From assembly GCF_963506605.1 (NCBI RefSeq), contig NC_083276.1:23436001-23500000 (forward strand): 64,000 bases of DNA, written 5' to 3'. Below are positions 13,182-45,630 of this stretch, in pieces; position 1 is the stretch's first letter; every line of letters begins with the position of its first letter. The position numbers and the translations under genes are program-made. The stretch is from Zootoca vivipara (lineage: Eukaryota). The notes under the pieces are model-generated. The model ran no database searches. It saw only the letters and a list, made by a program, of their open reading frames with translations, and was not told where the DNA came from.

Positions 13182-14340
13182 GTAAAGGTTTAAGGTGCTT
13201 GAGAAACTTCAATATTTTACTCTGCCAATAAAGGGGTTTGAGGAAAATTACATTATTGAATTGGAAGTGGTAGAGAAGAGACTGGGAGGTCATTATACTG
13301 TTATTAATGTTATTAAGAATTAATATACTGTTATTAATGTTATCAATGCAGTCAGTGCCTGGATGGGAGAATGTGACCTGATTTGCATGTAACACCAAGC
13401 CGAGGTTTATTAACAATGGATTATTGAACCGTGATTTGTTTGATTGTTTGATTTGTTTGATTGAACCATGCCCAATGGTTTAACTGTGGTTTGTTAATTG
13501 CTAGCACACCACAAACTGCAGTCATGGTTTTTTTTAATACTTATAAGCCTTGGTTTGTTTTATCTATGCTTTGACATTGCACATGGACCTGTCATGTATC
13601 TGTTGTCTTATGCTAGGTCAGCCTACTTGTTCATTTAGACCAGAGTTTCCCCAACTTGGGTCTTTCAGCTGCTGTTGGACTACAACTCCCATCATTCCTA
13701 GCCAGCAGGACCAGTGATCAGGTATGATGGGATTTGTAGCTGGAGATCCAAGTTTGAGAAACACTGATCTAGATTAACACTGCCTATTTTGATCGGCAGT
13801 AGGATCTCAGGCTAAGGTATGACCCACCATTTGCTACCTACTCCTTAAAACTGGAGGTACTGGAAATTGAAGCTGGGTAATATTGCAAGGTTGGGGACTT
13901 ATTGGGCTCTTCCATTAGCTACGTTCCCTCCCCACAGTTGGAAGCAGTAATGCTTCTGAATACCAGTTGCCAGAAACCACAGGACAGGAGAGTGCTCTTG
14001 TGCTCTGGTCCTGCTTGTAGGCTTCTCCTGTTACACCTAGTGTGAGAAAAGGATACTGGATTTATATAGGCCACTGCCTGATCCATCAGGCCATTCTTAT
14101 GTTTAGGCTGTTCTGTGCAGTGGATTGAAATTAGATATTCAGCCCATTTTAGTTGTTGACCATGAAATTGTCAGATTAATTTGCTGATATGGAGAGAGGC
14201 ACGATTCTGTTACCGATCTAAAAGCACACAATGCACATGGAGGAGGGGGAAGGTTGACACTTTGTTAACAACTATTACGTGCCTTTTTTTTTGAAGCTTC
14301 TGCGGGTGGCTATAAATGGACCCTAATTTGTGCTTTTCAG

Positions 14341-15806
14341 ATAACCTCTATGGGAATAACCAGAACGGCTATTACTGCCACTCTCAGACCAGCCTGGACA
14401 GGGCGCCGCATGACTACAATGGCAGAATCCGCAACGGCAGCGTCTACAGCGCTCACAGCACAAACTCGTTGAATAACCCACAACACTACATGCAGCCGTC
14501 GCCCATGTCCTCCAACCCGAGCATCACCGGCAGCGACGTCCTCCGGTCTGATTACGTCCCGTCACACCGGCACAGTGCCCTTATACCGCCTTCGTATCGG
14601 CCTACCCCGGATTATGAGACGGTGATGAAGCAGCTTAACCGGGGAATGATACACTCGGACAAGCAGAGCCACTCGATGAGGAACCTTAACATTGGCAACT
14701 CCTACGCCTACAGTAGACCCGACGCCATGGTTTACAGCCAGCCTGAAATCCGAGAACACGCCAATTTCACCTCCCCTCATTCTGGCCACTACCCGTTCAA
14801 CCTGAATTACAGTTTCCACAGCCAGTCGCCCTACCCCTATCCTGCCGAAAGGCGCCTGGTGGTTGGAGCAGTGAGCGTCCCTGAACTGACGAACGTTCAG
14901 TTACAGGCCCAGGAGTACCCTGCGCCAAACATCATGAAGACTCAAGTGTATCGCCCCCCTCCTCCTTACCCTCACCCGAGACCCGCCAACAGCACACCGG
15001 ACCTTTCTCGGCACCTCTACATCAGCAGCAGCAACCCGGATCTCATTACCCGGCGGGTCCATCACTCGGTCCAGACGTTTCAGGAAGACAGTCTACCCGT
15101 TGCACATTCCCTCCAGGAAGTGAGCGAGCCCTTGACGTCGGCCCGGCACGCTCAGCTGCAGAAGAGGAACAGTATTGAGATAGCTGGCTTGGCCCACAAC
15201 TTTGAGGCCATGAGGATTAAAGAGAGGACCATGTCGGCATCAGCCGCAGATGTGGCCCCTCCAAAGGTTATACTTGCCAGCTCACAGCCCACTGTTTTCT
15301 TGGAGAGGATGAAGCAAGAGGAAAATGAGGAGCAAGAGGAAAATGTGAGCTATGGACACAAGAAATCTCTTTCAGATGCCACTATGCTGATTCACAGCAG
15401 CGAGGAAGAGGAAGAATTTGAAGACGAACACAAGGCCAGTGCAACCCTCTCTCCCTTCGTCAATGGGAAACCCCAACTTCCTTCTGTCATGGGATGCTAT
15501 CCTTCTGAATCCTTACTGAACTACCCCTACAGCTCCGTCACTTCACACCCTGGCCCTTTGCACATACACGAACCCAAGTTGCATATTACTGAGACCGAGA
15601 GAGTAAAAGATGTGAGTCCTTCCCACATCGTGGCTGACACTCAGGTACAGAGAAGAGGCGATGGGCTGCTGACTCCGTCTGTGTCAGAGTCTGACTTAAC
15701 AATGTCTGCAAGGTACAGGGTGCGGAAGGATTCCATAAAGAAGAGGCCTGTGTCTGAATTGCTTTCCGGGAAGAAGAACATAGTGGAAGGGCTTCCTCCT
15801 TTAGGG
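14341..15806 (+). CDS. PTPN21: PTPN21 large exon 13 (disordered linker with PPxY motif and acidic tract)
   Basis: Lies within ORF 14316-16040; cag|..|gtgagt; motifs [51 protein letters not shown]. Confidence 0.96.
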
Positions 15807-16866
15807 GTGAGTTTCTCTAGGATGTTCCTCTTTTGTCTTTCTAGACACATGTTCACACATTACATAGAACACAGGCAAGCAGTCTCTACACATGTACAAA
15901 TGTTTGTGTGGAAGCATGTACACTTGTCGATTTGTGCAGGCCAACTGACTGTATACAAAATATGCGTGCATGTAATGCGAGCTTTACATATGAATATGCC
16001 ATCGAGTGTTAATATGATTAATAGCTCCCAAACAAGCTAGGATATAAGGTCCACTTCAAATAATAACTTTGTGTCTTGATGTGTTTGGAAGCCAATAACC
16101 TCTGCAATTTCTACTTCATATTAAAGATCACCTGCCAACTTACATGCTCAGCTGGCATAATCCTAAGGGGTCTCACCATTTTGCTTGTGTGCTAGACGTT
16201 GAAAGGCTGAATTCTCTGGGTTTGGAAATGTTACTTGCCTGCCAATAAAAAAATGTTCAAATTTCTGGCAGCTAAATGTTGAAAGGTATTTGACAGCTTG
16301 TATTTAGGGCTGTGTGTAGTCTGGGATTCTACAGAAGTGCAGGAAATCTGCAGAATGTGATATTGGCTGAAAGGCAACAATGTTCTGAATACATCTTTGT
16401 CCCAGAAACAGGATCAATTCTGTAAAACAGTAAAAATTCCTGTGTCTACTGTGCAAAATGAGAGTAGGAAATCTGCTGCTTCTGTAGCAGAATGTTTGAT
16501 TGTCCCATGCATACCTTTGTATATGAAGTCAGGGGGCAGTGAAGAGAGTGTTTTTGTAAAGTGCTTTGAAGGGCTATTTAATTTACAATCAAGTGGTATA
16601 TAATTTTTTATGAAATAAGCATACCAGATGTTCCTTCACACTTTCCTCTTAATTTCCATTTGTCTAGTTCAGGAGTGGGGAACCTGAGCCTCTAGAGAGG
16701 GTTTTTGTTGCACTCCAACTCCCATCAGCCGCAGGGATGATTAGAGTTGTAGTTCATCAACATCTGGAGGGCCACAGGTTCCACATTCCTGCTCTGTGCT
16801 AACTGATTCCAGTTGTGCCACATTTAAGCTGTTCAAACCTCACTGTAAGGCAATGTGGTGCAGTAA

Positions 16867-17092
16867 CAGTGGTACCTTGGTTTACAACCATAATCCGTTC
16901 CGGAGGTCCGTTTATAAACCAAAACAGGTTGTAACCCAAAGCACGCTTTTGCCAATGGGGCCTCAAAAAATTTTTGCTTGTAATTTAAAAAAATGGGTTG
17001 TAATAAAAAAAAGGTTGCAAACTTCTGGGTTTGAAATGTTTGTAATCCAAAATGTATGCAAATCAAGACGTATGCAAACCAAGGTACCACTG
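16867..17092. mobile_element. Tc1/mariner (Tigger-like) MITE
   Basis: TIR CAGTGGTACCTTGGTTT; TA at right end. Confidence 0.8.
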
Positions 17093-17638
17093 TAATGTAG
17101 TTAGAATACTGATGTTGGGGAAGGAAGACCTAGGTCCAAAGTTTGGGCCAGTCATACATACTAGCCTCAGCTGTAAAAACCTCACAGGGTTGTTTTTGTG
17201 AGAGTAAATGAAAGCAGGAGGCACACATCTGCTCATCCTGAGCTGCTGGGAAAGAAGGGCAAGAAGAAAATAATAAAAGTCACTGGGACCTATGCAACTT
17301 GGGTGCAAAATTTTGCTGTCCTACACTAATTGTTGGACTGTAGCCTGTGGCTGTTCATGAAAGCCCATTGTCTGCAATGATCCTTTCTCCCTAAGGTCTG
17401 TTTATCCTTCCTATGAAGTTTCGAAAACCTGGGGAATGAAGACAGACCAGGTGGAAAGAATGTTGCTTTGCTACTGCCGTGTTTGTAGGATTCTGTTGAC
17501 CAGAGGAGGCAAGGGCTGGCGGTTCTTCCCTTTTTGGGGTGAGCCCCCTCCCCTCCGTACTCCCCCACCCACCCTAGCAATTTCATTTGAGCCAGGTTTC
17601 TGCTGCAGCACATTGTCAGATTGCCTTGTTTCCAGCAG

Positions 17639-17776
17639 GTCATGAAAAAGAACAGAGCCGAAGCCAAAAAAATGGGACCTTTGAAGTTAGCTGCTCTAAA
17701 TGGACTGACGTTATCTCGGCTGCCGCTGCCAGACGAAGGGAAGGAGGAACCTGCCAGAGCAACAAATGATGAACGG
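17639..17776 (+). CDS. PTPN21: PTPN21 exon 14 (CAGCAG acceptor; alternative start 17636)
   Basis: [46 protein letters not shown]; donor gttggt. Confidence 0.93.
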
Positions 17777-18455
17777 GTTGGTTTGATGTTTTCTTTGAGC
17801 TGTATGTTAAAAAGGTTTCATATTCAGTTCCCATAGTTGCAGAATCTTGGTTGCCGTCAAGCAGAAGTTTTATCCAAGTAAAGGCATCAGGATTTGGTTT
17901 TATTTCTGCACCAAGTTTGGAAGGAAAGTGTCAGGTGCTTTTTATTTTTGCTGGTTTTGTATATCTTCTTGGTCCAGCTCTGTGGTTTTGAGATATTGTA
18001 TTCTGCGGATATGTAGAGAATTGCCAGGGGGGTCCCTATAAAGCAGAAACCTTCAGTTGTGTTTTTGTTTTGGATCTTAATATTAATGAGCTGGACGGCT
18101 GTTTTAAACAGATTTTACGCGTGTATATAGTTTTAAATCTATTAATGTTTATCTGCTTTTTAATATTCTTTTTCTATGTTCTTTGCGGTTCTTGTTTTTA
18201 TCTGTAAGTTGCCTTGAGTCCTGTCAAGAAAAAAGGCGAGATATAAACAACAATAATAGTTTTATTACAACCACCAGCTTTTTAATCAATTTGTGTGTGT
18301 GTGTTTGTGTGGTTCTTAAAAGTCTATAAGCCTAATTGAGAGCACCCGATATAAAGGCAACTTAAAAGTATCGGGGTGTGTGTGTTAAAAAATAGAGCAC
18401 GCACACAGAGGCAGACACCTGTTGAAAAACAATAAAACGTGTTCTTTCTTTCTAG

Positions 18456-18677
18456 TGTAAAGGTCTGGAACAAGGGTTGGAACAAGGGATGGTGTTTACA
18501 GAATACGAGCGGATCCAGAAGAAAAGGCTTCTGGATGGGGACTGCTCAATTGCCCGCCTTCCAGAAAACGCAGAAAGGAACAGGTTTCAGGATGTGCTTC
18601 CTTATGACGACACCAGAGTAGAGCTGGTCCCTACTAAAGAAAACAATACGGGTTATATCAATGCTTCCCACATTAAG
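18456..18677 (+). CDS. PTPN21: PTPN21 exon 15 (start of PTP domain)
   Basis: [18 protein letters not shown]...[34 protein letters not shown]; tag|..|gtgagc. Confidence 0.96.
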
Positions 18678-20119
18678 GTGAGCTCAAGAAGCAATGGGAA
18701 TGTTTTCCTGAATGATTTATTTCACCTATCTATGATCTTTCTTGTGAGACGCTTTTTTAAAAGTCAAAGCATGCCATAGGCTTGTTTAACTGGATGGTGT
18801 TACGGATGGTGCAGAGAAGCAGGAGCCCTGGAGAATGTTGCTTTTCTTAGTGGGCAAAAGGAACTGTTAAAACATCTGCTGTACATCCAACATGCCACTT
18901 GCCATCATTTATTTTCCATAAGGCTAGACGGAAAAGAGAGCCGACATTCTTTGCATTTTCTGATCCTTTTGACTTATCCTACCTCAGAGCGTATCTATCA
19001 GAAAGTAGGTTTTAGCTTAGAGCCTTTTGCTTATTCTCGGTAGGGATTATCTTGGAAGTTGATCTTTTCAGAATCTCTGTCTTTGAACTAACTTAGTGCA
19101 GGCCCATATTATGAATTTATCACAAGCCTGGGCCCTACCGTAAAGCAGACTGAGGCAGCTGCCTCATGAAGCTGATTTGAGGTATCCTGAAAGGGCAACA
19201 ATTTTTAGTTATCTGATTTACTATTTTTCTGTTTTTCACTGGCAGAGAGGGGCAATTGTGGATTTTTTTTGTCTCGGGTGCCAGAAACAAAACCTAGACT
19301 GGCCTTGCATACAATGCTCTTTGACTTGGGGGCACCTTTTGCTGTTTTGCCTCAGGCAGCAAAATGTCTTGGGCTGGCCCTGCTTATCAGTCAACCTTCC
19401 TTCACTCTGAAGTGATCTGAGGCGTATTATGATACTGCCCGAGGGTTATAGCTCTGCCAAGCATATTTTGAGCTTCCTAGTTGCCGTGAAGGTGACAACA
19501 GTCAAGGAAGAGGCCCTTACCCATGTTCTGTTCTCATCATTATGATATGCTGGGTGGTATGAATTGTCTATTTTTGGGATTAAATGTGAAGAGAGGAAAT
19601 CATATGGCAGGAACAAAAGGTATACAGGTTGATCTGTGCTGACTGACTTCCACCTCTCCATTTTTAAATCAGAGGGTGATATCTAATGGTTGCCATGCTC
19701 TGACAAATCCAGTGAAATTAATAGCCCAAGTTACTCATGTCTGTTTATTTCAGTGGTTCTGCTCTGAGTATGGGGAACATTGGGTATTTTCTGGAACTAT
19801 AGAATGTAGAGTTGGAAGAGGTCTCAAGGGTCATCTAGTCCAACCCCTTGCAATGCAGGAATCTCAGCAAAAGCATCCATGACAGATGGCTATCCAACCT
19901 CTGCTTAAAAACCTCCAAGGAAGGAGAGTCCACCACCTCCCGAGGGAGTCCATTCCACTGTCAGAAAGTTCTTCCTAATGTTTAGTCAGAATCTCCTTTC
20001 TTGTAACTTGAAGCTAATGGTTTGAGTTCTACCCTCTGGAGCAGGAGAAAACAAGCTGCTCCATCTTCCATTGTTGTTGTTGTTGTTGTTTATATACTGC
20101 CCTATACCTATACGTCTCA

Positions 20120-20276
20120 GCTCCACCACATGCAGCTGCTGGGTGACCTTGGGCTAGTCACACTTCCCTGAAGTCTCTCAGCCCCACTCACCTCACAGAG
20201 TGTTTGTTGTGGGAGAGGAAGGGAAAGGAGAATGTTAGCTGCTTTGAGCCTCCTTCAGGTAGTGATAAAGCAGGAT
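20120..20276 (+). mobile_element. Same SINE family, 5'-truncated, runs into an N gap
   Basis: Identity to the 1045 copy. Confidence 0.8.
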
Positions 20277-20451
20277 NNNNNNNNNNNNNNNNNNNNNNNN
20301 NNNNNNNNNNNNNNNNNNNNNNNNNNNNNNNNNNNNNNNNNNNNNNNNNNNNNNNNNNNNNNNNNNNNNNNNNNNNNNNNNNNNNNNNNNNNNNNNNNNN
20401 NNNNNNNNNNNNNNNNNNNNNNNNNNNNNNNNNNNNNNNNNNNNNNNNNNN
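20277..20451. other. Assembly gap (other gaps 23858-24057 and 51876-52003)
   Basis: N runs. Confidence 1.
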
Positions 20452-20531
20452 TTTATTGAATTTATATACTGCTCTATACCCTGAGAATATGGCTGTTCCA
20501 TGTGACAGTCTTTAAGATAGTTATCATATCT

Positions 20532-20788
20532 CCAGTGTGGTGTAGTGGTGAAGAGTGGTAGACTCATAATCTGGGGAACCGGGTTCGCGTCTCCGCTCCT
20601 CCACACACAGCTGTTGGGTGACCTTGGGCTAGTCACACTTCTCTGAAGTCTCTCAGCCTCACTCACCTCACAGGGTGTTTGTTGTGGGGGAGGAAGGGAA
20701 AGGAGAATGTTAGCCGCTTTGAGACTCCTTCGGGTAGTGATAAAGCAGGATATCAAATCCAAACTCCTCCTCCTCCTCCTCCTCCTCT
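20532..20788 (+). mobile_element. Same SINE family, full length, (CCT)n tail
   Basis: Identity to the 1045 copy. Confidence 0.85.
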
Positions 20789-20934
20789 CAGTCTCCACGT
20801 TTCCAGGCTAAACATATCCAGCTCCTTCAACCGTTCCTCATAAGGCCTGGTTTCCAGACCTGTTGCTGCTGTTTTCTTTTAAGTCTCACAATCCACTCAT
20901 CCCTTGCATCATTTTTGTCTTTTCTTTTTCTTAG

Positions 20935-21186
<252 letters not shown>

Positions 21187-21310
21187 TGAATGTACTGACC
21201 AAAGGAACATGGGAGGGTAGCTTATACCAAGGTGGACCAATGGTCCATCTTCCTCAGTATTGTCCACACTGACTGACCACATTTCTCCAGAGTTTTCCCC
21301 CAGTTAAGAA

Positions 21311-21817
21311 TAGAGATGTAAAATTTCCGAAAATTTTGAAGCTCAGAAAAAACCCCAGTTTTCTCCCGGTTCCCCCCCCCCCCCTATATTAGCACTTCCT
21401 TTTTCTTTTCCAGATTGAAAGTTATTCTGTTACTTTAGCAACATAAAATATAACTATGGACAATTTTAATGGGCATAAAATAATCACAACTAGCATATTA
21501 AAAATATAGTGTATCCAAACAGGAACTGAAATTTATCTTGTCATTCATCACTGTTTGCTATGCAACATGTTCAGTTTATAACCTAGGACTTGCTTGTCCT
21601 CACAGAAATTAGAATAATCTGATACCATACATTTTTTTTAAAAAAAAGATTTATAAAATATTTGAACCCCTTATCTTAAAACATTTTATTCATCATGTTA
21701 AAATAAAACATTCCATAATCTATTTTTTATTTTTTCAATTTTTCAAACTTTTCGGGAAAAAAACAAAAAAGGCTTCAGGACAGAAAACAGAAAAAAAACC
21801 GGGCCTTCACACCTCTA
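21311..21817. mobile_element. Non-autonomous hAT transposon
   Basis: Imperfect TIR TAGAGATGTAAA / TTCACACCTCTA; perfect 8-bp TSD GTTAAGAA. Confidence 0.8.
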
Positions 21818-22255
21818 GTTAAGAACAAAAGAAGAGCCTGCTGGATCAGGCCAATGGCCCATCTAGTTGAGCATCCTGTTCTCACAGTGGGCTCACAGGT
21901 GCCTGTGGGAAACCTGCAAGAGGGATTTGAGCCTGGGAGCACATTACCCTCTTGTGGTTTCCATAAACTGGTATTCAGAAACATGGAAGAGCACAGCCAT
22001 CATGGCCAATAGCCACTGATAGTCTTAGCTGTACCTGGGGAAGCCAGGGTTTGAAGCTGTGCCCTTCTGCATGCAGAGCAGACCCTCTACCTCTGAGGTG
22101 TGGCCCTTTCCTTCCAGTCTAATTTTGACTGACCAGGTTTGACAGGACAGTGTAGAAGGGCCCATGTAGTTTAGTGGCTAGTGGGCAAATCAAGCTTCAA
22201 ATCTTCACTCCCTGGGCGACTTTGGGACTTGCCCCTCTTTCTTAGCCCCAACATA

Positions 22256-22649
22256 CCATGTTGGCCTGAATATAAGGCACACCCACAAATAAGCTGCACC
22301 TTAAAAATTTAAGGGGGGGAAAGAAAGAAAAAATAATACCCGAATATAAGCCGCTCCCTTAAAATTGGGTCACAGGCTGAAAATCGCTGCGGTTGGTAGA
22401 ATTGTAACTCCAAGCCAATTTAAGCCCTTGATCTTGCGAGCCCGCAATTGCTATTCAATTGCTACAATTCCGCAGGCACTCAAGCTCGCAAATCGGCAAT
22501 AAAACATTTTTTTTTGTTCCGCTTTATATCTGTTTCAGCAGCGATATCGCAAAAGCCAATTTTTGTAAGGTTGCGGATATAAGCCGCACTTTAACCTTTC
22601 ACGGTCAGAATTTGGAAAGAAAGTGTGGCTTATATTCGGGCCAATATGG
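22256..22649. mobile_element. pogo/Tigger-like MITE inserted in an old MIR-like SINE
   Basis: TIR CCATRTTGGCCYGAATATAAG; TA TSD. Confidence 0.75.
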
Positions 22650-22808
22650 TACCTCACAGGATCGTTGTGAGGTTGGAATGAAGGGGCATGGGGGAAGAAG
22701 CGGGATCTAAATTTTGAAAATAATAAACCACAAGTCCTTTTTGAAACAACTATGTTTCTGCGGAAGGTCACATGGGAGCTTTCTGTTGACGAAGCTTAAT
22801 GTTTCCAG

Positions 22809-23043
22809 GAGGGATGCCGAGAGAAAAGCTTCCGATACTGGCCGCGGCTTGGCTCGAGGCACAACACAGTGACGTATGGGAGGTTCAAGATCACCACCCG
22901 ATTCCGAACGGACTCTGGCTGTTACGCAACGACAGGCCTGAAGATCAAGCACCTCCTCACGGGGCAAGAGAGAACGGTTTGGCACCTTCAGTACACAGAC
23001 TGGCCGGAGCATGGCTGCCCAGAGGACATAAAAGGGTTTCTTT
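22809..23043 (+). CDS. PTPN21: PTPN21 exon 17 (PTP, WPE loop)
   Basis: [15 protein letters not shown]...[20 protein letters not shown]; cag|..|gtacgt. Confidence 0.96.
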
Positions 23044-23637
23044 GTACGTGTTTCCGAGGTTTTTTTTTTGTCTTTTGTGGTGGTAAATGAATCCTTTCTC
23101 GGGAACTAGGTGTCAAGAGATGCTATGGAAACGTCTTTTGTGGCTAGAAGTACCCCACTCCCATCTGTGTTGTTTTTACTTTGCCCACTTTTGGTCAAGT
23201 TTTGGTGTGATCTGGGCATGGTCTTGAAAAGCACATAATAAGGCAAGCTTCCTGAAAGGGAGCTGGCTAAATGCTGGCCAGGACACAACCTGGTAATGCT
23301 CCTGTGTTCTGCCATGAGTTCTTTTGGAGAAGGGAGATATAGAAATAATTTTTTTTTGGGGGGGGGGATGCAGAGCAGATGCCACTCCATGGGGAGAACA
23401 AACCAGAGTCATGGCCTCACCATGGAGAAAGCCCTTCTGTGAGCTTCCCGACTACAAATCCTCACGGGGACTGGAAGTAAGGCTCCCCACCCCCTCCTGA
23501 TCTTCAGGATTAATTGACTTGGGTGGTATGGGAGTTGAGGTGCTCCCGCAGATACTTGGGCCTTGAGCCGTTTGGGGCTTTATAATCCATTAGCAGCGTG
23601 TGGAATTGGGTCTGGTAGCTTATAAGCATCTTTATAA

Positions 23638-23857
23638 GCACCAGTGTGGTGTAGTGGTTAAGAGCGGTAGACTCATAATCTGGGGAACCGGGTTCGCGTC
23701 TCCGCTCCTCCACATGCAGCTGCTGGGTGACCTTGGGCTAGTCACACTTCTCTGAAGTCTCTCAGCCCCACTCACCTCACAGAGTGTTTGTTGTGGGGGA
23801 GGAAGGGAAAGGAGAATGTTAGCCGCTTTGAGACTCCTTCGGGTAGTGATAAAGCGG
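23638..23857 (+). mobile_element. Same SINE family, tail in an N gap
   Basis: Identity to the 1045 copy. Confidence 0.85.
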
Positions 23858-24192
23858 NNNNNNNNNNNNNNNNNNNNNNNNNNNNNNNNNNNNNNNNNNN
23901 NNNNNNNNNNNNNNNNNNNNNNNNNNNNNNNNNNNNNNNNNNNNNNNNNNNNNNNNNNNNNNNNNNNNNNNNNNNNNNNNNNNNNNNNNNNNNNNNNNNN
24001 NNNNNNNNNNNNNNNNNNNNNNNNNNNNNNNNNNNNNNNNNNNNNNNNNNNNNNNNNGTTCTGAGTGGACATGTTTCAATTGCGCTCTCTGCCGCCCTGA
24101 CTTACTTGGCTGCCACTTTTTGTACTTGCTTGTGTTATTGCCTGGTTTAAATAATTTCTCTCTTCTTTCCTCTTTTCTGTTGGATCTGACAG

Positions 24193-24353
24193 CATACTTG
24201 GAAGAGATACAGTCAGTCCGGCGCCACACAAACAGTACTGCGGATCCTACAGTCCCCAACCCTCCCCTGCTGGTGCATTGCAGTGCTGGCGTTGGGAGAA
24301 CCGGTGTGGTCATCTTGTCGGAGATCATGATTGCCTGCTTGGAGCACAATGAG
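24193..24353 (+). CDS. PTPN21: PTPN21 exon 18 (PTP catalytic motif)
   Basis: [11 protein letters not shown]...[28 protein letters not shown]; donor gttatt. Confidence 0.96.
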
Positions 24354-25272
24354 GTTATTTCTTGGCCTTCTAAAACTCTGGTGCATGTGTTGGGGAGTTT
24401 GATCAGGGGGGTCCACAGAGCAGGGGTGGGGGTAGTCCATGCCCCTCCCATGCAATGATGTCAAGGAGTAGCACTAGGGGTTGCTGGTGAACCCTTAAAG
24501 CTGCTGTAGTCTTGGTAGGTTCCCCAAGATGTCATATTTATACACACAATTTTTTGCTGTTCATCATCCCTGTCCTGCCGCGGAGTAACAAAGCCTACCA
24601 ATTGCATCACCAAATTTTGCTTTCTTGGGGCTTTAACAGAGCGTGATCTGGCAGGGATCAAAGACAAGGAGCATTAATGAAACTCATCCCAGTTCTAGCA
24701 ATCTGGGAATGACTAACTTTAAGACAAAGGTTTCAAAGCATACTTTTCACCTCCTTCTATTATTTACAGTCTATGTACACAATATGCATAGAGCTGCAAA
24801 ACGAAACTCATTGAAACTGATTTCTTCTGAGAATATTATTATTTAATTAAGTTTGTATACCTCCCTTCATCTGTAGATCTCAGGGCAGTTCATAGCATGG
24901 AAGGACGGTTTCCTGTCCTCTCCTACACTCACCTGTGACACCTCCCCCCCCCCCAAAAAAAACCTGGGTTGAGGGGAATGCTGGTAGGAAGAAGAGATGA
25001 GAAGCTTCTCTTTAACATGTCTTAGGGTACCACTCTTTGGGCAATTCCCTGTCATACCATTCCCCCATTGTTCAGAAAGGTCTCTGGCCCTCCAGAAAGG
25101 CACTTTGGAGCGTACAGCAATGGGAAGAAGGGGACATGAATCTTTCCTTCCATTCACTTCCTTAGGTTCACTGATCCCCAAGCTAAAGTCTGTAAATGTG
25201 CCTGTCTGTCTGGTGCAGAAACCTATAGACTTGCAGGCATGATGGTCTTCCATTCTGATCTTTCTTTTGCAG

Positions 25273-25401
25273 CCACTGGACATCCCAAGAATGCTGGATA
25301 TGTTAAGACAGCAAAGGATGATGATGGTGCAGACCTTGTGCCAATACACGTTTGTCTACGGAGTCCTCATCCAATTCCTTAAGAGTTCGAGGCTTATATA
25401 A
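25273..25401 (+). CDS. PTPN21: PTPN21 last coding exon (19) with stop
   Basis: [42 protein letters not shown]; TAA at 25399-25401. Confidence 0.96.
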
Positions 25402-25596
25402 GCCTTCCTTACTACGCTTCCTAAGTTTCGCTGTTTGCAAGAGTTTACAAAAGCAGTTTTGCCTTCCGCCGGGGCAACGTTTCTGGCTTGGTTTGAAGAT
25501 GCTGAGTGCAAGTCCAGTGGCTTCTTGCTTCTGCAGAGCAAGACTTTGGGGTGGATGGGTTTTCTTCTTCGTGTGCAGTTGGAACAAGAAAGGAAG

Positions 25597-25598
<2 letters not shown>

Positions 25599-25631
<33 letters not shown>
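25599..25631. repeat. (GT)n microsatellite in the PTPN21 3'UTR
   Basis: Read directly from the sequence. Confidence 0.95.
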
Positions 25632-41426: not shown

Positions 41427-43358
41427 CTGAGCCACAAGCGGTGGGAGAGAGGACAGCAGAACTCAGACACTGAAGGCAACACACTAACACAAAGCCGTCA
41501 TGCATTTATGCTCATATATACCTCAATGAATAGACTGAATGTGGAGGGGGAGGCTCCTATTGCCAGAGGGTGGGCTGAATACCATGTGCTTAGTCTACAT
41601 GTGGAGAGGAACACGTGTAAAGGGTTTCTGTCTAGCTGTTACTGCTTCACTAAATAATCTTGGGGAATTTATGGCTTGGGGAGGGTGCAGAGAATTTTGT
41701 TAGTGATTCCCAGCCCTCCTAACGTAACTACATTTCCTAGGATTACTTTTGAAGAAGGGTATCACTATTAACCTGGTTTCAATATGTTAACATACACTAG
41801 TGGGGAAATTAAGGTTAAGCAATATTCTAGAAACTGGCTTCATTCCATTCATCAAATTCTGGCAACTCTTTATGAAATGACCTTCACATAAAACCATCTT
41901 TTAAGGAAGATGCCCAGGGATCTCTTATAAGGCAAGGAATGCCACTTCTGATGGGCCTCAAGTACGTGACCCGCATGCCATTTAGACTGAAATTTTTTTA
42001 GCATGAGGAATTTATCCAATGAATGGCCCTGTTGGTGTGTTCTACATACTAATGCCTTCGTGATCACAACAAAAGGTAGTTTGAAAAATCACTTCTGACA
42101 ATGCTGCTTTTCAGCTCAAGAAAAGTACATTGGCTTTTATGAGCTTCTGAATTTACAATATCTCGTTTCCTAAAGGGAAATGGTCCTTAAGTAGGTCTTT
42201 GATTCAGTGATTTTACAGCATGCCTATCATAGAGCTCTCATGTTGCCGAATATGCCACCCACTAAATCTATTTTATTTCAGTGCTTTTGTCGTCGGTGCA
42301 GACAGAGAGTGCACAGAATGCACAAATATATGCTGCACCTTTTTATTTGGGGGGGGGGCTCTGTGGCTCAGCACAGGTGAGTCATCAAGAATATGAGTAG
42401 GCTTGAGTTTGGCTGTAAACTCAAGAGGTTTATCAGGAAAATCAAAACAAAACACAATTGAGCTGAATCTAACAAAGCCGTCTTCCATTTGTGGAAAAGA
42501 ACTTCCCTTCTCCCCAAAATCAGTCATGGAGGCTCCTCCAACCTTCAGGAGTAGATTTGGGGGAATGTGTGTGTATGTGTGTGTGTGTAGGGGGGGGGGA
42601 ATTATGCTTGCATTAGCAGGGCAGCTTTATTGATTGGGTTGTATTCAACTAACTTATGTCCATCAATTCCAAAGGGTCTACACTTGAGTAGAACTTAGCT
42701 GGATACAGCCCAATGTGTGGTATCCAACTAAACTGTCACATCAGCGCACAAATTTGTCTTTCTCTTCTCCCCTACCACGTGTGCCCTGCACCCTCAACAC
42801 ATCTGCTTTGGAGAATTGGGGGAACCCCTACAAAAGATTTTTTTGGGGGGGGAGCTGCATTGCACAAGTGTGAATCCTTGTGCAGCTCAGTTTTGTGGGG
42901 TGTATGTTTGTGTGTCAGGGGAGGGGCAGGGCAAAAAGGTATCTCAGCTATGGTAAAAGCCAGTGAGAAGAACTGCGACTCTGCGACTTTCTTTGAAGAA
43001 GGAATTTGGAGTTTTTAAAAGGTATATCTGATGTCACAGCCATATTGGTGCTGGAGTATAAGAACAGGACAAAATTTACCTCAAAGCACTCAAGAGGCAG
43101 AGGTGTACATGGGCTGGCTAATCTGGCAGGGCAGATGTTTCCTCACTAGGCCCTTAACATCGACTCTGTCTGGTGATACGAGAATCAGATCCTGAGAGGG
43201 GCTGTTAGTCTAACAGCCACATGACACAGCAACTTCACATGCTCAGTTTTTAATATGACTTAATGAAGATTATTTGACACACAAGTCCCATTTAAATTTC
43301 TTCACATGTATTCATATTCATAGCCCTTCCACTCCTACTCCCTAACCTGGCCTTGTTT

Positions 43359-43567
43359 CAGTAGCACTTTAAAGACCAACTAAGTTTATATTTTGGTATG
43401 AGCTTTCGTGTGCATGCACACTTCTTCAGATACCTGAAGAATCTGAAGAAGTGTGCATGCACACGAAAGCTCATACCAAAATATAAACTTAGTTGGTCTT
43501 TAAGGTGCTACTGAAGGAATTTTTTTATTTTGCTTCGACTCAGACCAACACGGCTACCTACCTGTAA
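43359..43567. mobile_element. Penelope-like element remnant (inverted pseudo-LTR pair)
   Basis: 75-bp inverted arms 43357-43431 / 43441-43515 with 1 mismatch; 12-bp direct repeat CTGGCCTTGTTT at 43347-43358 and 43568-43579; hammerhead motif typical of Penelope pLTRs. Confidence 0.85.
43395..43434 (-). ncRNA. Minimal type I hammerhead ribozyme
   Basis: Minus strand GGUAU-CUGAAGA-A-GUGUG(CAUG)CACAC-GAAA-GCUC/AUACC: stem I GGUAU:AUACC, intact core, palindromic AGCU helix III. Confidence 0.8.
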
Positions 43568-44020
43568 CTGGCCTTGTTTGTTATTATACTTTTTATTAAG
43601 CATGAATGCCTCAAGTATTTTGGCCTCACCCAAATGAACCTGAACCTCTTTTCCGTCTTTTGTTACCAACAACTCGCCCCAAAATATTTCCTGGTGTACC
43701 ACCCTGGGTCAGAGTTACTTCCAGTAACCATTTTGTTTTATCGCATTCTCGCCCTTTATTGGTAGAGGGATGCTCTTGCTGCTAACAAAATTGCCCCCTC
43801 CTTTCAAACACGCTTTCCCTCTTACTAGTTTTGCTGCTGAAATTTTGTTTGAAGGAATATGCAAATATGTCTGCTTAGAAAGCATATATAATAGCCTTAA
43901 TCTCAAAAAAGGCGCCTTTTCTGGATTTCACAGACATGGTAATGAGCCCAGCATCAGCAGAACGGCAAACAAGCCAAGTTGAGTATGAATATTGCCACCA
44001 CCACCCCAAACGCCATGTAC

Positions 44021-44085
44021 CTTGATGAGGAGAACTGGGGGAAAGACTTCATTTCATCAGCCTTATTATCTGCATTGTCTTCCAC
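44021..44085 (-). CDS. SPATA7: SPATA7 exon 8 (short)
   Basis: tag|..|gtacat; VEDNADNKADEMKSFPQFSSS(R); phase 0-2 bridges its neighbours. Confidence 0.75.
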
Positions 44086-44252
44086 CTACAACCCAGAGAA
44101 AGCATCTCTGTTATTGGTGCAAAAGAAATGAAAAGCGAGAGGGAGGAACTGTAGTCTGTTAACATGTGGAACCGAACCTGCCCCCCCTCAACATGCATAT
44201 GCTCTGCCACCATACCAGGAACAACGCAATGCGCCTGGACTTTTCAGGTATG

Positions 44253-44420
44253 GGAAAGGGCCATACCTCAGCGGTAGGACATTTGCAAGCAGAAGCTTCA
44301 GGTTCAATCTCTGGCATTTCCAGGAAGGGCTAGGTAGGGACTCCCGTCTGAAACCACGGAGAGCCGCTGCCAGACAGTGTACACAATAGTGAGCTGAATA
44401 ACCCAGACAGCTTATTATGA
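44253..44420 (+). mobile_element. Squam3-type tRNA SINE (other copies ~61110-61270 +, ~21200-22110 - split, ~63225-63895 - split by LTR)
   Basis: CTCAGCGGTAG..CAGGTTCAATC head; TGAAACC..GAGAGCCGCTGCCAG body. Confidence 0.7.
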
Positions 44421-44425
44421 GAACA

Positions 44426-45630
44426 CTAGTGGAATTCAGCCTGTTAAAAATAAACGGGCGCTAGAACAGATTTTATTGATTTTTAGTGTGCAAAGCAGAG
44501 AGGCTGGGACCCAAGAGCAGCGCATGGGGTGGAGGGAAGGAAGTCAGGTGGGCCGCCGCTGCCGCCGGAGCTTCAGGGTTGCGAGGGGGGGGTAACTTCG
44601 TTGCTCCAGCAGGCGGAGCAGAACCGGCCAAACGGTTAACTAAGGTCTGATGTTGCTGAGTCACAGAGCATAATTCATCAACCCAGATCTCTTTACCTGT
44701 CAAGACTTATCATATAAACATTAATACCTTCCAGAAGATAATCAAAGAACTGCTGAAATTCATCTGAAGCCCCACTGTCATCGAGTAACTGGGTGGGTGG
44801 GACTGATGCTACAGGGGCAAATGCCCCTTTGTCTGGGATCTGAGGGGTAGTTCCCCCACCTGCAGGAATGATGGGAACGGGTGTGCAGCCCCGCCGAAGC
44901 GGCGTCCGTGGGAGGGGCCAGCCGGCCCCCCCACGCGCCGCCGCCACAGAAAGAGGCCGAATTGCGGCCTTCTTCTGGGCGCCCGCTGCCCAGCTGGGCT
45001 CAGCTGAGCGCCCCAACGAAGCAGCAGCTGTGGGAGGGGCCAGCCGCCCCCCCCACGCGCCGCCGCCACAGAAAGAGGCTGAATTGCTGCCTTCTTCTGG
45101 GCGCCCGCTGCCCAGCTGGGCTCAGCGGAGCGCCCCAACGAAGCGGCGGCTGTGGGAGGGGCTAGCGGCCCCCCCACGCGCCGCCGTCACAGAAAGAGGC
45201 CGAATTGCGGCCTTCTTCTGGGCGCCCGCTGCCCAGCTGGGCTCAGCTGAGCGCCCCAACGAAGCAGCGGCTGTGGGAGGGGCTAGCCGCCCCCCGTGCC
45301 GCCGCCACAGAAAGAGGCCGAATTGCAGCCTTCTTCTGGGCGCCCGCTGCCCAGCTGGGCTCAGCTGAGCGCCCCAACGAAACGGCGGCTGTGGGAGGGG
45401 CCAGCCGCCGCCCCCACGCGCCACCACAACAGAAAGAGGTCGAATCACGGCATTTTCTTAGGCGCCCGCTGCCCAGCTGGGCTCAGCGGAGCGCCCCAAC
45501 AAAGCGGAGTAAACGGTAGGCAGAGGTGGGGGGGGGGAGAGAGCGCGCACGTGTGCGTCCTGTCTCTCCGTCCAATCCCTATGTCCCTGGGGTACATGCA
45601 CAGTAACCCAGGGACACACGGGACATACAG
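44426..45630 (-). mobile_element. Non-autonomous Helitron (5' end approximate)
   Basis: On minus: GCCCGTT..AACAGGC hairpin (44439-44459) about 9 nt before terminal CTAG|T (44426-44429); no TSD seen; internal minisatellite. Confidence 0.7.
44888..45510. repeat. GC/CpG-rich minisatellite, ~120-bp unit x ~5
   Basis: ACAGAAAGAGG recurs at about 44946, 45067, 45189, 45307 and 45429; internal palindromes GCCCAGCTGGGC and GCTCAGCTGAGC. Confidence 0.95.

Follow-up and report, generated by a model that had tools for sequence, protein, structure and literature searches.

Insertions of EN+ Penelope-like elements (PLEs) have been described, in passages of two papers, as carrying an inverted pLTR, a tail of 30–40 bp on one arm, and a target-site duplication (TSD) (PMC3846280; PMC8557442). 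Pen2a_Av of Adineta vaga, which figures in excerpts of the former, has head-to-head pLTRs, a one-arm tail, a short TSD, and a palindromic junction. The tail has been tied to two nearby reverse-transcription start sites (PMC11167929, in part), and a CX2-5CxxC linker is treated in the relevant portion of PMC8557442 as a mark of Neptune and Nematis that is absent from Penelope/Poseidon.

Minimal hammerheads (min-HHRs) are characterized in sections of Cervera and de la Pena (2014; PMC4209133) as type I motifs with a short helix I, an extra nucleotide after A9, a G10.1-C11.1 pair, a palindromic 15.2-16.2, and no loop 3; they occur mostly as dispersed single copies, with opposite-strand pairs noted. 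According to the same sections, a single minimal PLE hammerhead gave no cleavage and dimers gave low cleavage; background on dimer cleavage is found in parts of a review (PMC6765202). For Poseidon PAc of the lizard Anolis carolinensis, a PLE with a tail and a hammerhead near the ORF start, excerpts of Frangieh et al. (2024; PMC11167929) report that the hammerhead cut only with the PLE protein and was not needed for insertion, that uncleaved RNA served as template, and that no RNA-seq reads ended at the hammerhead cut. Amniote intronic hammerheads (RECK, CTCL, and DTNB; PMC6155905, in part) are of type I, canonical, located on the intron sense strand, and conserved across amniote groups. A non-LTR retrozyme is built from at least two units in tandem, all of which have a hammerhead (bioRxiv 10.64898/2026.07.22.740005).

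Here, we compare these systems with a hammerhead found in a 64,000-nucleotide stretch of the Zootoca vivipara genome (hereafter ‘the window’), for which an original prediction had proposed an intact ribozyme of Penelope origin, transcribed within the gene SPATA7. The motif very probably belongs to a young, lineage-specific, protein-less Penelope insertion of 209 bp and of Neptune/Nematis type, with pLTR ends lying head to head and a sense hammerhead that folding predictions place inside a hairpin, where it is likely inert in SPATA7 pre-mRNA.

The minus strand at 43434-43395 reads, letter for letter as originally described, as a minimal type I hammerhead in SPATA7 sense orientation. Stem I comprises 5 bp (43434-43430 with 43399-43395), of which base 43434 is supplied by the inversion junction discussed below. 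It is followed by the CUGAAGA core (43429-43423) and one extra A, by a 5-bp stem II closed by G10.1-C11.1 and capped by a CAUG loop, by GAAA, and by an AGCU palindrome that replaces helix III, leading to the CUC triplet, with the cut predicted at 43400/43399. All core positions (C3-U4-G5-A6-N7-G8-A9, G12-A13-A14-A15.1, and U16.1-H17) are present, as are the extra nucleotide 9/10.1, the G10.1-C11.1 pair, the palindromic 15.2-16.2, and a helix I of 4-5 bp; core, extra nucleotide, and palindromic AGCU without loop 3 together place the motif in the minimal type I class to which it had been assigned. The features of min-HHRs listed above (PMC4209133, in part) are shared by the SPATA7 motif, which differs in having a helix II of 5 bp that with its loop forms a perfect 14-nt palindrome (43408-43421, and again at 43451-43464 in the other arm) and in being sequestered, as predicted by folding, by its own antisense copy.

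In isolation, the 40-mer is predicted to fold into stems I and II at -10.1 kcal/mol (z -1.75). The hammerhead search that had been suggested, run with a relaxed descriptor over both strands of the window and 20 kb beyond its end, returned the motif at 43434-43395 as its single match, and no second hammerhead was found on either strand of that region. Local shuffles (n=100) gave a mean of 0.03 descriptor matches and none of equal strictness (0/100). Among 31 Rfam matches to the insertion at E<=5, no hammerhead family appeared, presumably because helix III is missing. Rfam matches to miRNA precursors were rejected, as they lie below gathering scores and occur on both strands through palindromy.

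The hammerhead sits in one of the two arms of a Penelope insertion of 209 bp (43359-43567), in which two pLTR ends lie head to head, flanked by a perfect 12-bp direct repeat that constitutes the TSD (43347-43358 and 43568-43579, plus strand). The inverted, tail-less arm (43359-43433, minus strand, i.e. SPATA7 sense), delimited by the inverted repeat and by homology to the parent pLTR, reads outward and begins at the four native stem I bases. A short repeat of the first core bases (43434-43440, plus strand) separates it from the long arm (43441-43567, plus strand, i.e. SPATA7 antisense), which by parent homology comprises the core without stem I and a 3' tail. The tail is confined to one arm: the long arm extends through to the end of the 99-nt part downstream, of which the short arm covers 47 nt, compared with mostly 59-73 in other copies with the same junction type (30 loci sampled). 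Hammerhead and plus-strand twin lie in the arms of a 75-bp inverted repeat (43357-43431/43441-43515) with one mismatch (43368/43504), an arrangement that, like the TSD around it, the original prediction had overlooked, and 123 of the 127 bases of the long arm are identical to a pLTR copy that precedes an intact 925-aa frame.

This homology to a parent with RVT_1 and GIY-YIG domains, the TSD, and the inverted-pLTR layout together bear out the proposed Penelope origin. The layout itself, an inverted 5'-truncated pLTR beside a direct pLTR with a tail, is already published for EN+ PLE insertions, and Pen2a_Av in particular resembles the SPATA7 insertion in every feature given above (PMC3846280, in part). 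In contrast to those published insertions, the SPATA7 insertion has no ORF at all and both of its arms are cut at the hammerhead 5' edge, so that it carries no protein and forms a 209-bp near-perfect palindrome. The twin had been said to have lost stem I; it does lack a working stem I, with 2 bp left, but the cause is 5' truncation at the time of insertion and not later decay.

SPATA7, a ciliary gene, is located on the minus strand (Pfam HSD3 matches), and the SPATA7 protein of Zootoca vivipara matches the large exon at 99% identity. By tblastn, minus-strand exons were placed at 46521-46455, at 44085-44021 (exon 8, upstream of the motif; 22/22 residues, 321-342, AG/GT bounded), and at about 41428-41372 (exon 9, downstream of the motif, ends approximate; 19/19 residues, 342-360). 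Exons on the same strand therefore flank the motif, and the sense orientation attributed to it stands; the intron is intron 8 provided that residues 1-21 make up one exon, exon 1 having been sought without success over 9 kb upstream of exon 2. The insertion lies ~450 nt from the nearest splice donor and 1.9 kb from the acceptor. Cleavage within an intron need not stop splicing. A literature search for SPATA7 together with hammerheads, of a kind that misses most subscription journals and Repbase, found nothing.

Several other features of the gene and its surroundings may be recorded. Intron 7 of SPATA7 holds a GC-rich 122-bp tandem repeat (44888-45505; 5.1 copies, 90% matches). Protein tyrosine phosphatase exons (Pfam Y_phosphatase) on the plus strand at ~14316-25600 belong to a gene convergent with SPATA7, which we take to be PTPN21. 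At C3:94.25-94.29 Mb, three ordered HSD3 (SPATA7-family) matches (best E 1e-12) mark a possible paralogue, and an annotated isoform of Lacerta agilis SPATA7 contains the residues of exons 7-9 in tandem, either through exon-block duplication or as an assembly artefact.

The site was compared with a related species whose flanks are ~5% divergent. A contig from that species joins 43078-43342 to 43568-44400, with 10 letters between the flanks where the window has 225 and a clean empty site would give 4; this empty site rests on one contig of one run, is 6 letters longer than the clean prediction, and could alternatively reflect a deletion in the relative. In the same species, contigs enter the insertion from both flanks in three of three runs, one of which matches the window exactly beside the insertion and is perhaps not independent of the assembly. 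These runs indicate that the insertion may be fixed, with the caveat that contigs drop rare alleles. With the site empty in the relative and both junctions present in same-species runs, the insertion appears to be young and lineage-specific.

This history sets it apart from the hammerheads of RECK, CTCL, and DTNB, with which it has type I architecture and intron sense orientation in common: those motifs are canonical and conserved across amniote groups (PMC6155905, in part), whereas the SPATA7 motif is minimal, is missing from a relative, and has more than 13,000 copies. Neither of the marks of RECK-type domestication was found, given the empty site in a relative with ~5% divergent flanks in place of orthologous conservation across amniotes, and the missing loop 3 and the 31 Rfam matches (E<=5) in place of a canonical helix III with an Rfam hammerhead match.

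The family to which the insertion belongs is large. By exact matching in the 1.44-Gb genome, with reversed-pattern controls of 0 throughout, the 34-nt hammerhead core occurs 17,230 times and the core together with a 4-bp stem I 13,219 times; a downstream pLTR anchor gave 20,730 matches, and inversion junctions of the SPATA7-copy type numbered 444. Core density is 0.77 per 64 kb, and the copy number gives a 41-kb gene a chance of ~17% of containing an intact sense copy. The best 40 of 1,774 genome candidates all match the 209-bp segment at 95-100%. A GIY-YIG frame is found upstream of longer copies, and a protein search returned many open frames of up to about 925-950 aa among the best 150 of 9,353 candidates; many intact frames genome-wide suggest that the family is currently active.

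A parent locus at C2:103028000-103037900 contains three 3,030-bp head-to-tail Penelope units, each followed by a hammerhead, and in each unit the hammerhead is located inside the pLTR of an RT + GIY-YIG element. Two of the three units have the whole 925-aa frame inside the stretch examined, and these frames are identical and intact. The frame matches RVT_1 (E 5e-12) and GIY-YIG (E 6e-5) and includes a DKG motif, a C-x4-C-x2-C linker, and two cysteines before YIG. Its linker between RT and EN is of the CX2-5CxxC form used to recognize Neptune and Nematis, and the parent is accordingly best placed, as far as motifs can assign a clade, as probably Neptune/Nematis-type. PAc is similar in being a lizard PLE with a tail and a hammerhead near the ORF start (PMC11167929, in part), but the Zootoca parent has the linker that Penelope/Poseidon lack, and the hammerhead precedes the opening of its long frame. 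A further candidate full-length element, suspected at C1:1.206-1.213 Mb from core spacing, proved to hold a 241-aa fragment only.

Out of 30 junction loci sampled, a partner core lay no more than 1.5 kb away in 23 (two of these rows being one insertion) and was lacking in 7; nearly all of the 23 combine one full and one shorter arm, the difference usually being 30-40 nt, with TSDs mostly of 12-19 bp. A literature search for Penelope in Zootoca gave nothing relevant by title in a collection that covers neither Repbase nor the majority of subscription journals; a catalogue entry for the family may already exist, and reptile hammerhead families may be listed in the supplements of PMC4209133.

In the three parent units, stem I consists of 4 bp followed by a U-C mismatch, and among sampled copies with >30 nt of upstream parent sequence, 42 of 44 have T at the position that contributes the fifth-pair G in the SPATA7 copy. 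This G is part of the core-base repeat at the inversion junction, and the perfect fifth stem I pair is a junction product, not a parental feature. The view of the SPATA7 hammerhead as a specially intact motif finds no support: its core with stem I is one of 13,219 exact copies, and the pair that exceeds the parental 4 bp came from the junction.

The 13-nt junction of the SPATA7 copy recurs in 15 insertions. Recurrence of this kind might indicate descent of the SPATA7 copy from a palindromic, non-autonomous master re-copied whole, as opposed to a one-off inversion, all the more as a separate set of four insertions with a common 21-nt junction, an arm-specific change, and different TSDs exists. 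We regard such a descent as unlikely, however. The 15 copies are spread over at least four pLTR subfamilies, from which it follows that the junction arises independently; where both arms can be read, those of one insertion share subfamily marks; and the closest copy with the same junction (L219) differs by a change, present on each of its arms, that is absent from the SPATA7 copy. A common master for the 13-nt junction is not supported, given the subfamily spread and this change.

Matters are different for the 21-nt junction, of which there are exactly four copies (L220-L223), at C1:15.32, 15.58, and 17.10 Mb (within 1.8 Mb) and at C19:5.36 Mb. These four insertions agree in a stem II change confined to one and the same arm, a variant present in 5 of 211 fetched cores, the four insertions included. 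Their 12-15 bp TSDs differ, and the tail is on one arm in three of them and on the other arm in one. Copying of one common palindromic source as a unit likely accounts best for this set, though not for the SPATA7 copy. Palindromic PLE mini-elements were not encountered by title in a literature search that misses most subscription journals and Repbase.

To locate the 5' ends of family members, we used 100 copies anchored downstream of the hammerhead (C1 0-3.2 Mb, essentially the first 100 of 20,730 anchor matches) and five reference sequences, with C3 numbered +1 and the cut product +31. None of the 100 copies started at the cut site (+31 plus or minus 1), and in 38 the start lay inside the hammerhead or at its edge. 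Two starts fell at +36 or beyond, 1 at +26 to +35, 7 at +11 to +25, 11 at +2 to +10, 20 at -9 to +1, 8 at -29 to -10, 24 at -99 to -30, and 27 further up. The 5' ends of these copies pile up over the hammerhead, peaking at its 5' edge; the calls are blurred by microhomology, include one internal deletion, and contain some mid-range ends that may reflect subfamily divergence from the five references. A core-anchored sample agrees, with 24 of 80 copies starting within 10 nt, after 20 of 100 listed places (about half of them richer in longer copies) had been left out.

These ends lead us to infer stalling or jumping during reverse transcription at the hammerhead, with cleaved RNA rarely used as a template; the lack of cut-site starts among the 100 listed copies agrees with the use of uncleaved PAc RNA as template (PMC11167929, in part). 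A broader reading, to which we would give a little less than an even chance, is that the hammerhead is the place where reverse transcription stops and folds back and not an RNA cut site, with the resulting pLTR hairpins silencing their own ribozymes and being re-copyable, from either direction, as non-autonomous palindromic mini-elements.

For the SPATA7 insertion itself, the following course of events seems probable. The GIY-YIG nuclease of the parent would have cut both target strands ~12 bp apart, and reverse transcription would have been primed at two nearby start sites, which defined the tail. Both copies would have stopped at the hammerhead 5' edge and been joined via a short stutter that added, by chance, the fifth stem I pair. 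Upon transcription of SPATA7, RNA polymerase is predicted to make the antisense arm first, and this arm to capture the hammerhead as it emerges; the intron would then be spliced out and degraded together with its dsRNA stem.

Support for the last part of this scheme comes from equilibrium nearest-neighbour folding, in which Mg2+, tertiary contacts, and proteins are not included. In the pre-mRNA, the antisense (long pLTR) arm precedes the hammerhead in order of transcription. For the insertion region, the predicted fold is a single hairpin of -142.5 kcal/mol (z -21; 0/200 shuffles), near-perfect on both strands. Within a 451-nt context, stem I pair probabilities are close to 1e-41, and the penalty for imposing stems I and II is 59.5 kcal/mol. 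In each of the seven core-containing nascent lengths tested, the core was paired to the upstream arm (P>=0.998); with that arm removed, stem II forms (0.97-0.98) and stem I reaches only about 0.2. On these predictions, the hammerhead is most likely sequestered in a 75-bp hairpin with its own antisense twin and is likely inert in SPATA7 pre-mRNA, although helicases, editing of the stem, or PLE protein could open the hairpin and the core is fully intact.

Because every core position is intact in sense orientation, because the family retains many intact ORFs, and because a protein-assisted cut has been published for the anole element (PMC11167929, in part), one may ask whether the hammerhead cleaves SPATA7 pre-mRNA at a low level in trans, through AGCU pairing with Penelope transcripts or through Penelope protein, and thereby lowers or alters SPATA7 output. 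This is very improbable in light of the predicted penalty of 59.5 kcal/mol in context. For the bare 40-mer, moreover, the dimer through the 4-bp helix III (-17.7 kcal/mol) is less stable than two monomers (-20.2) or a duplex of the stem II palindrome (-37.2), and a start at the cut site was seen in none of 100 family copies among the matches listed.

There is similarly little to recommend the proposal that the insertion acts, if at all, not as a ribozyme but as a 75-bp dsRNA stem, i.e. as a substrate of A-to-I editing or a source of small RNAs. The hairpin is near-perfect on both strands, and a miRNA-precursor model scores 66.6 bits, albeit against a gathering score of 90 and only through palindromy; the nearest donor is ~450 nt and the acceptor 1.9 kb away, and hundreds of similar hairpins exist in the genome. 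We consider a role as dsRNA scarcely probable and retain the reading of a trapped, likely inert hammerhead.

The original prediction had drawn from the motif that a self-cleaving RNA is transcribed inside a ciliary gene. A self-cleaving motif of importance to that gene is not supported, with a hammerhead predicted to be sealed in a hairpin, no second hammerhead on the same strand, and a site that is empty in a relative; a sense copy is, moreover, expected by chance in ~17% of 41-kb genes. For SPATA7, the insertion is most likely of no consequence, in keeping with a chance expectation of about one in six genes of that length. More can be learned from the family than from the locus: the family is young, with many intact ORFs and more than 17,000 identical hammerhead cores, and its insertion junctions are therefore informative on Penelope inverted ends and templates. 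They amount to a large record of how inverted ends are built and of whether cleaved RNA serves as template, two questions left open in the cited portions of the papers discussed above.

Finally, the locus differs from a non-LTR retrozyme in that it has two cores on opposite strands, and no tandem hammerhead units were found there. Elsewhere in the genome, at C1:2777100-2780300, four same-strand hammerhead cores are spaced 598 bp apart in a retrozyme-like tandem of truncated units, which is a better site than the SPATA7 locus to look for dimer cleavage.
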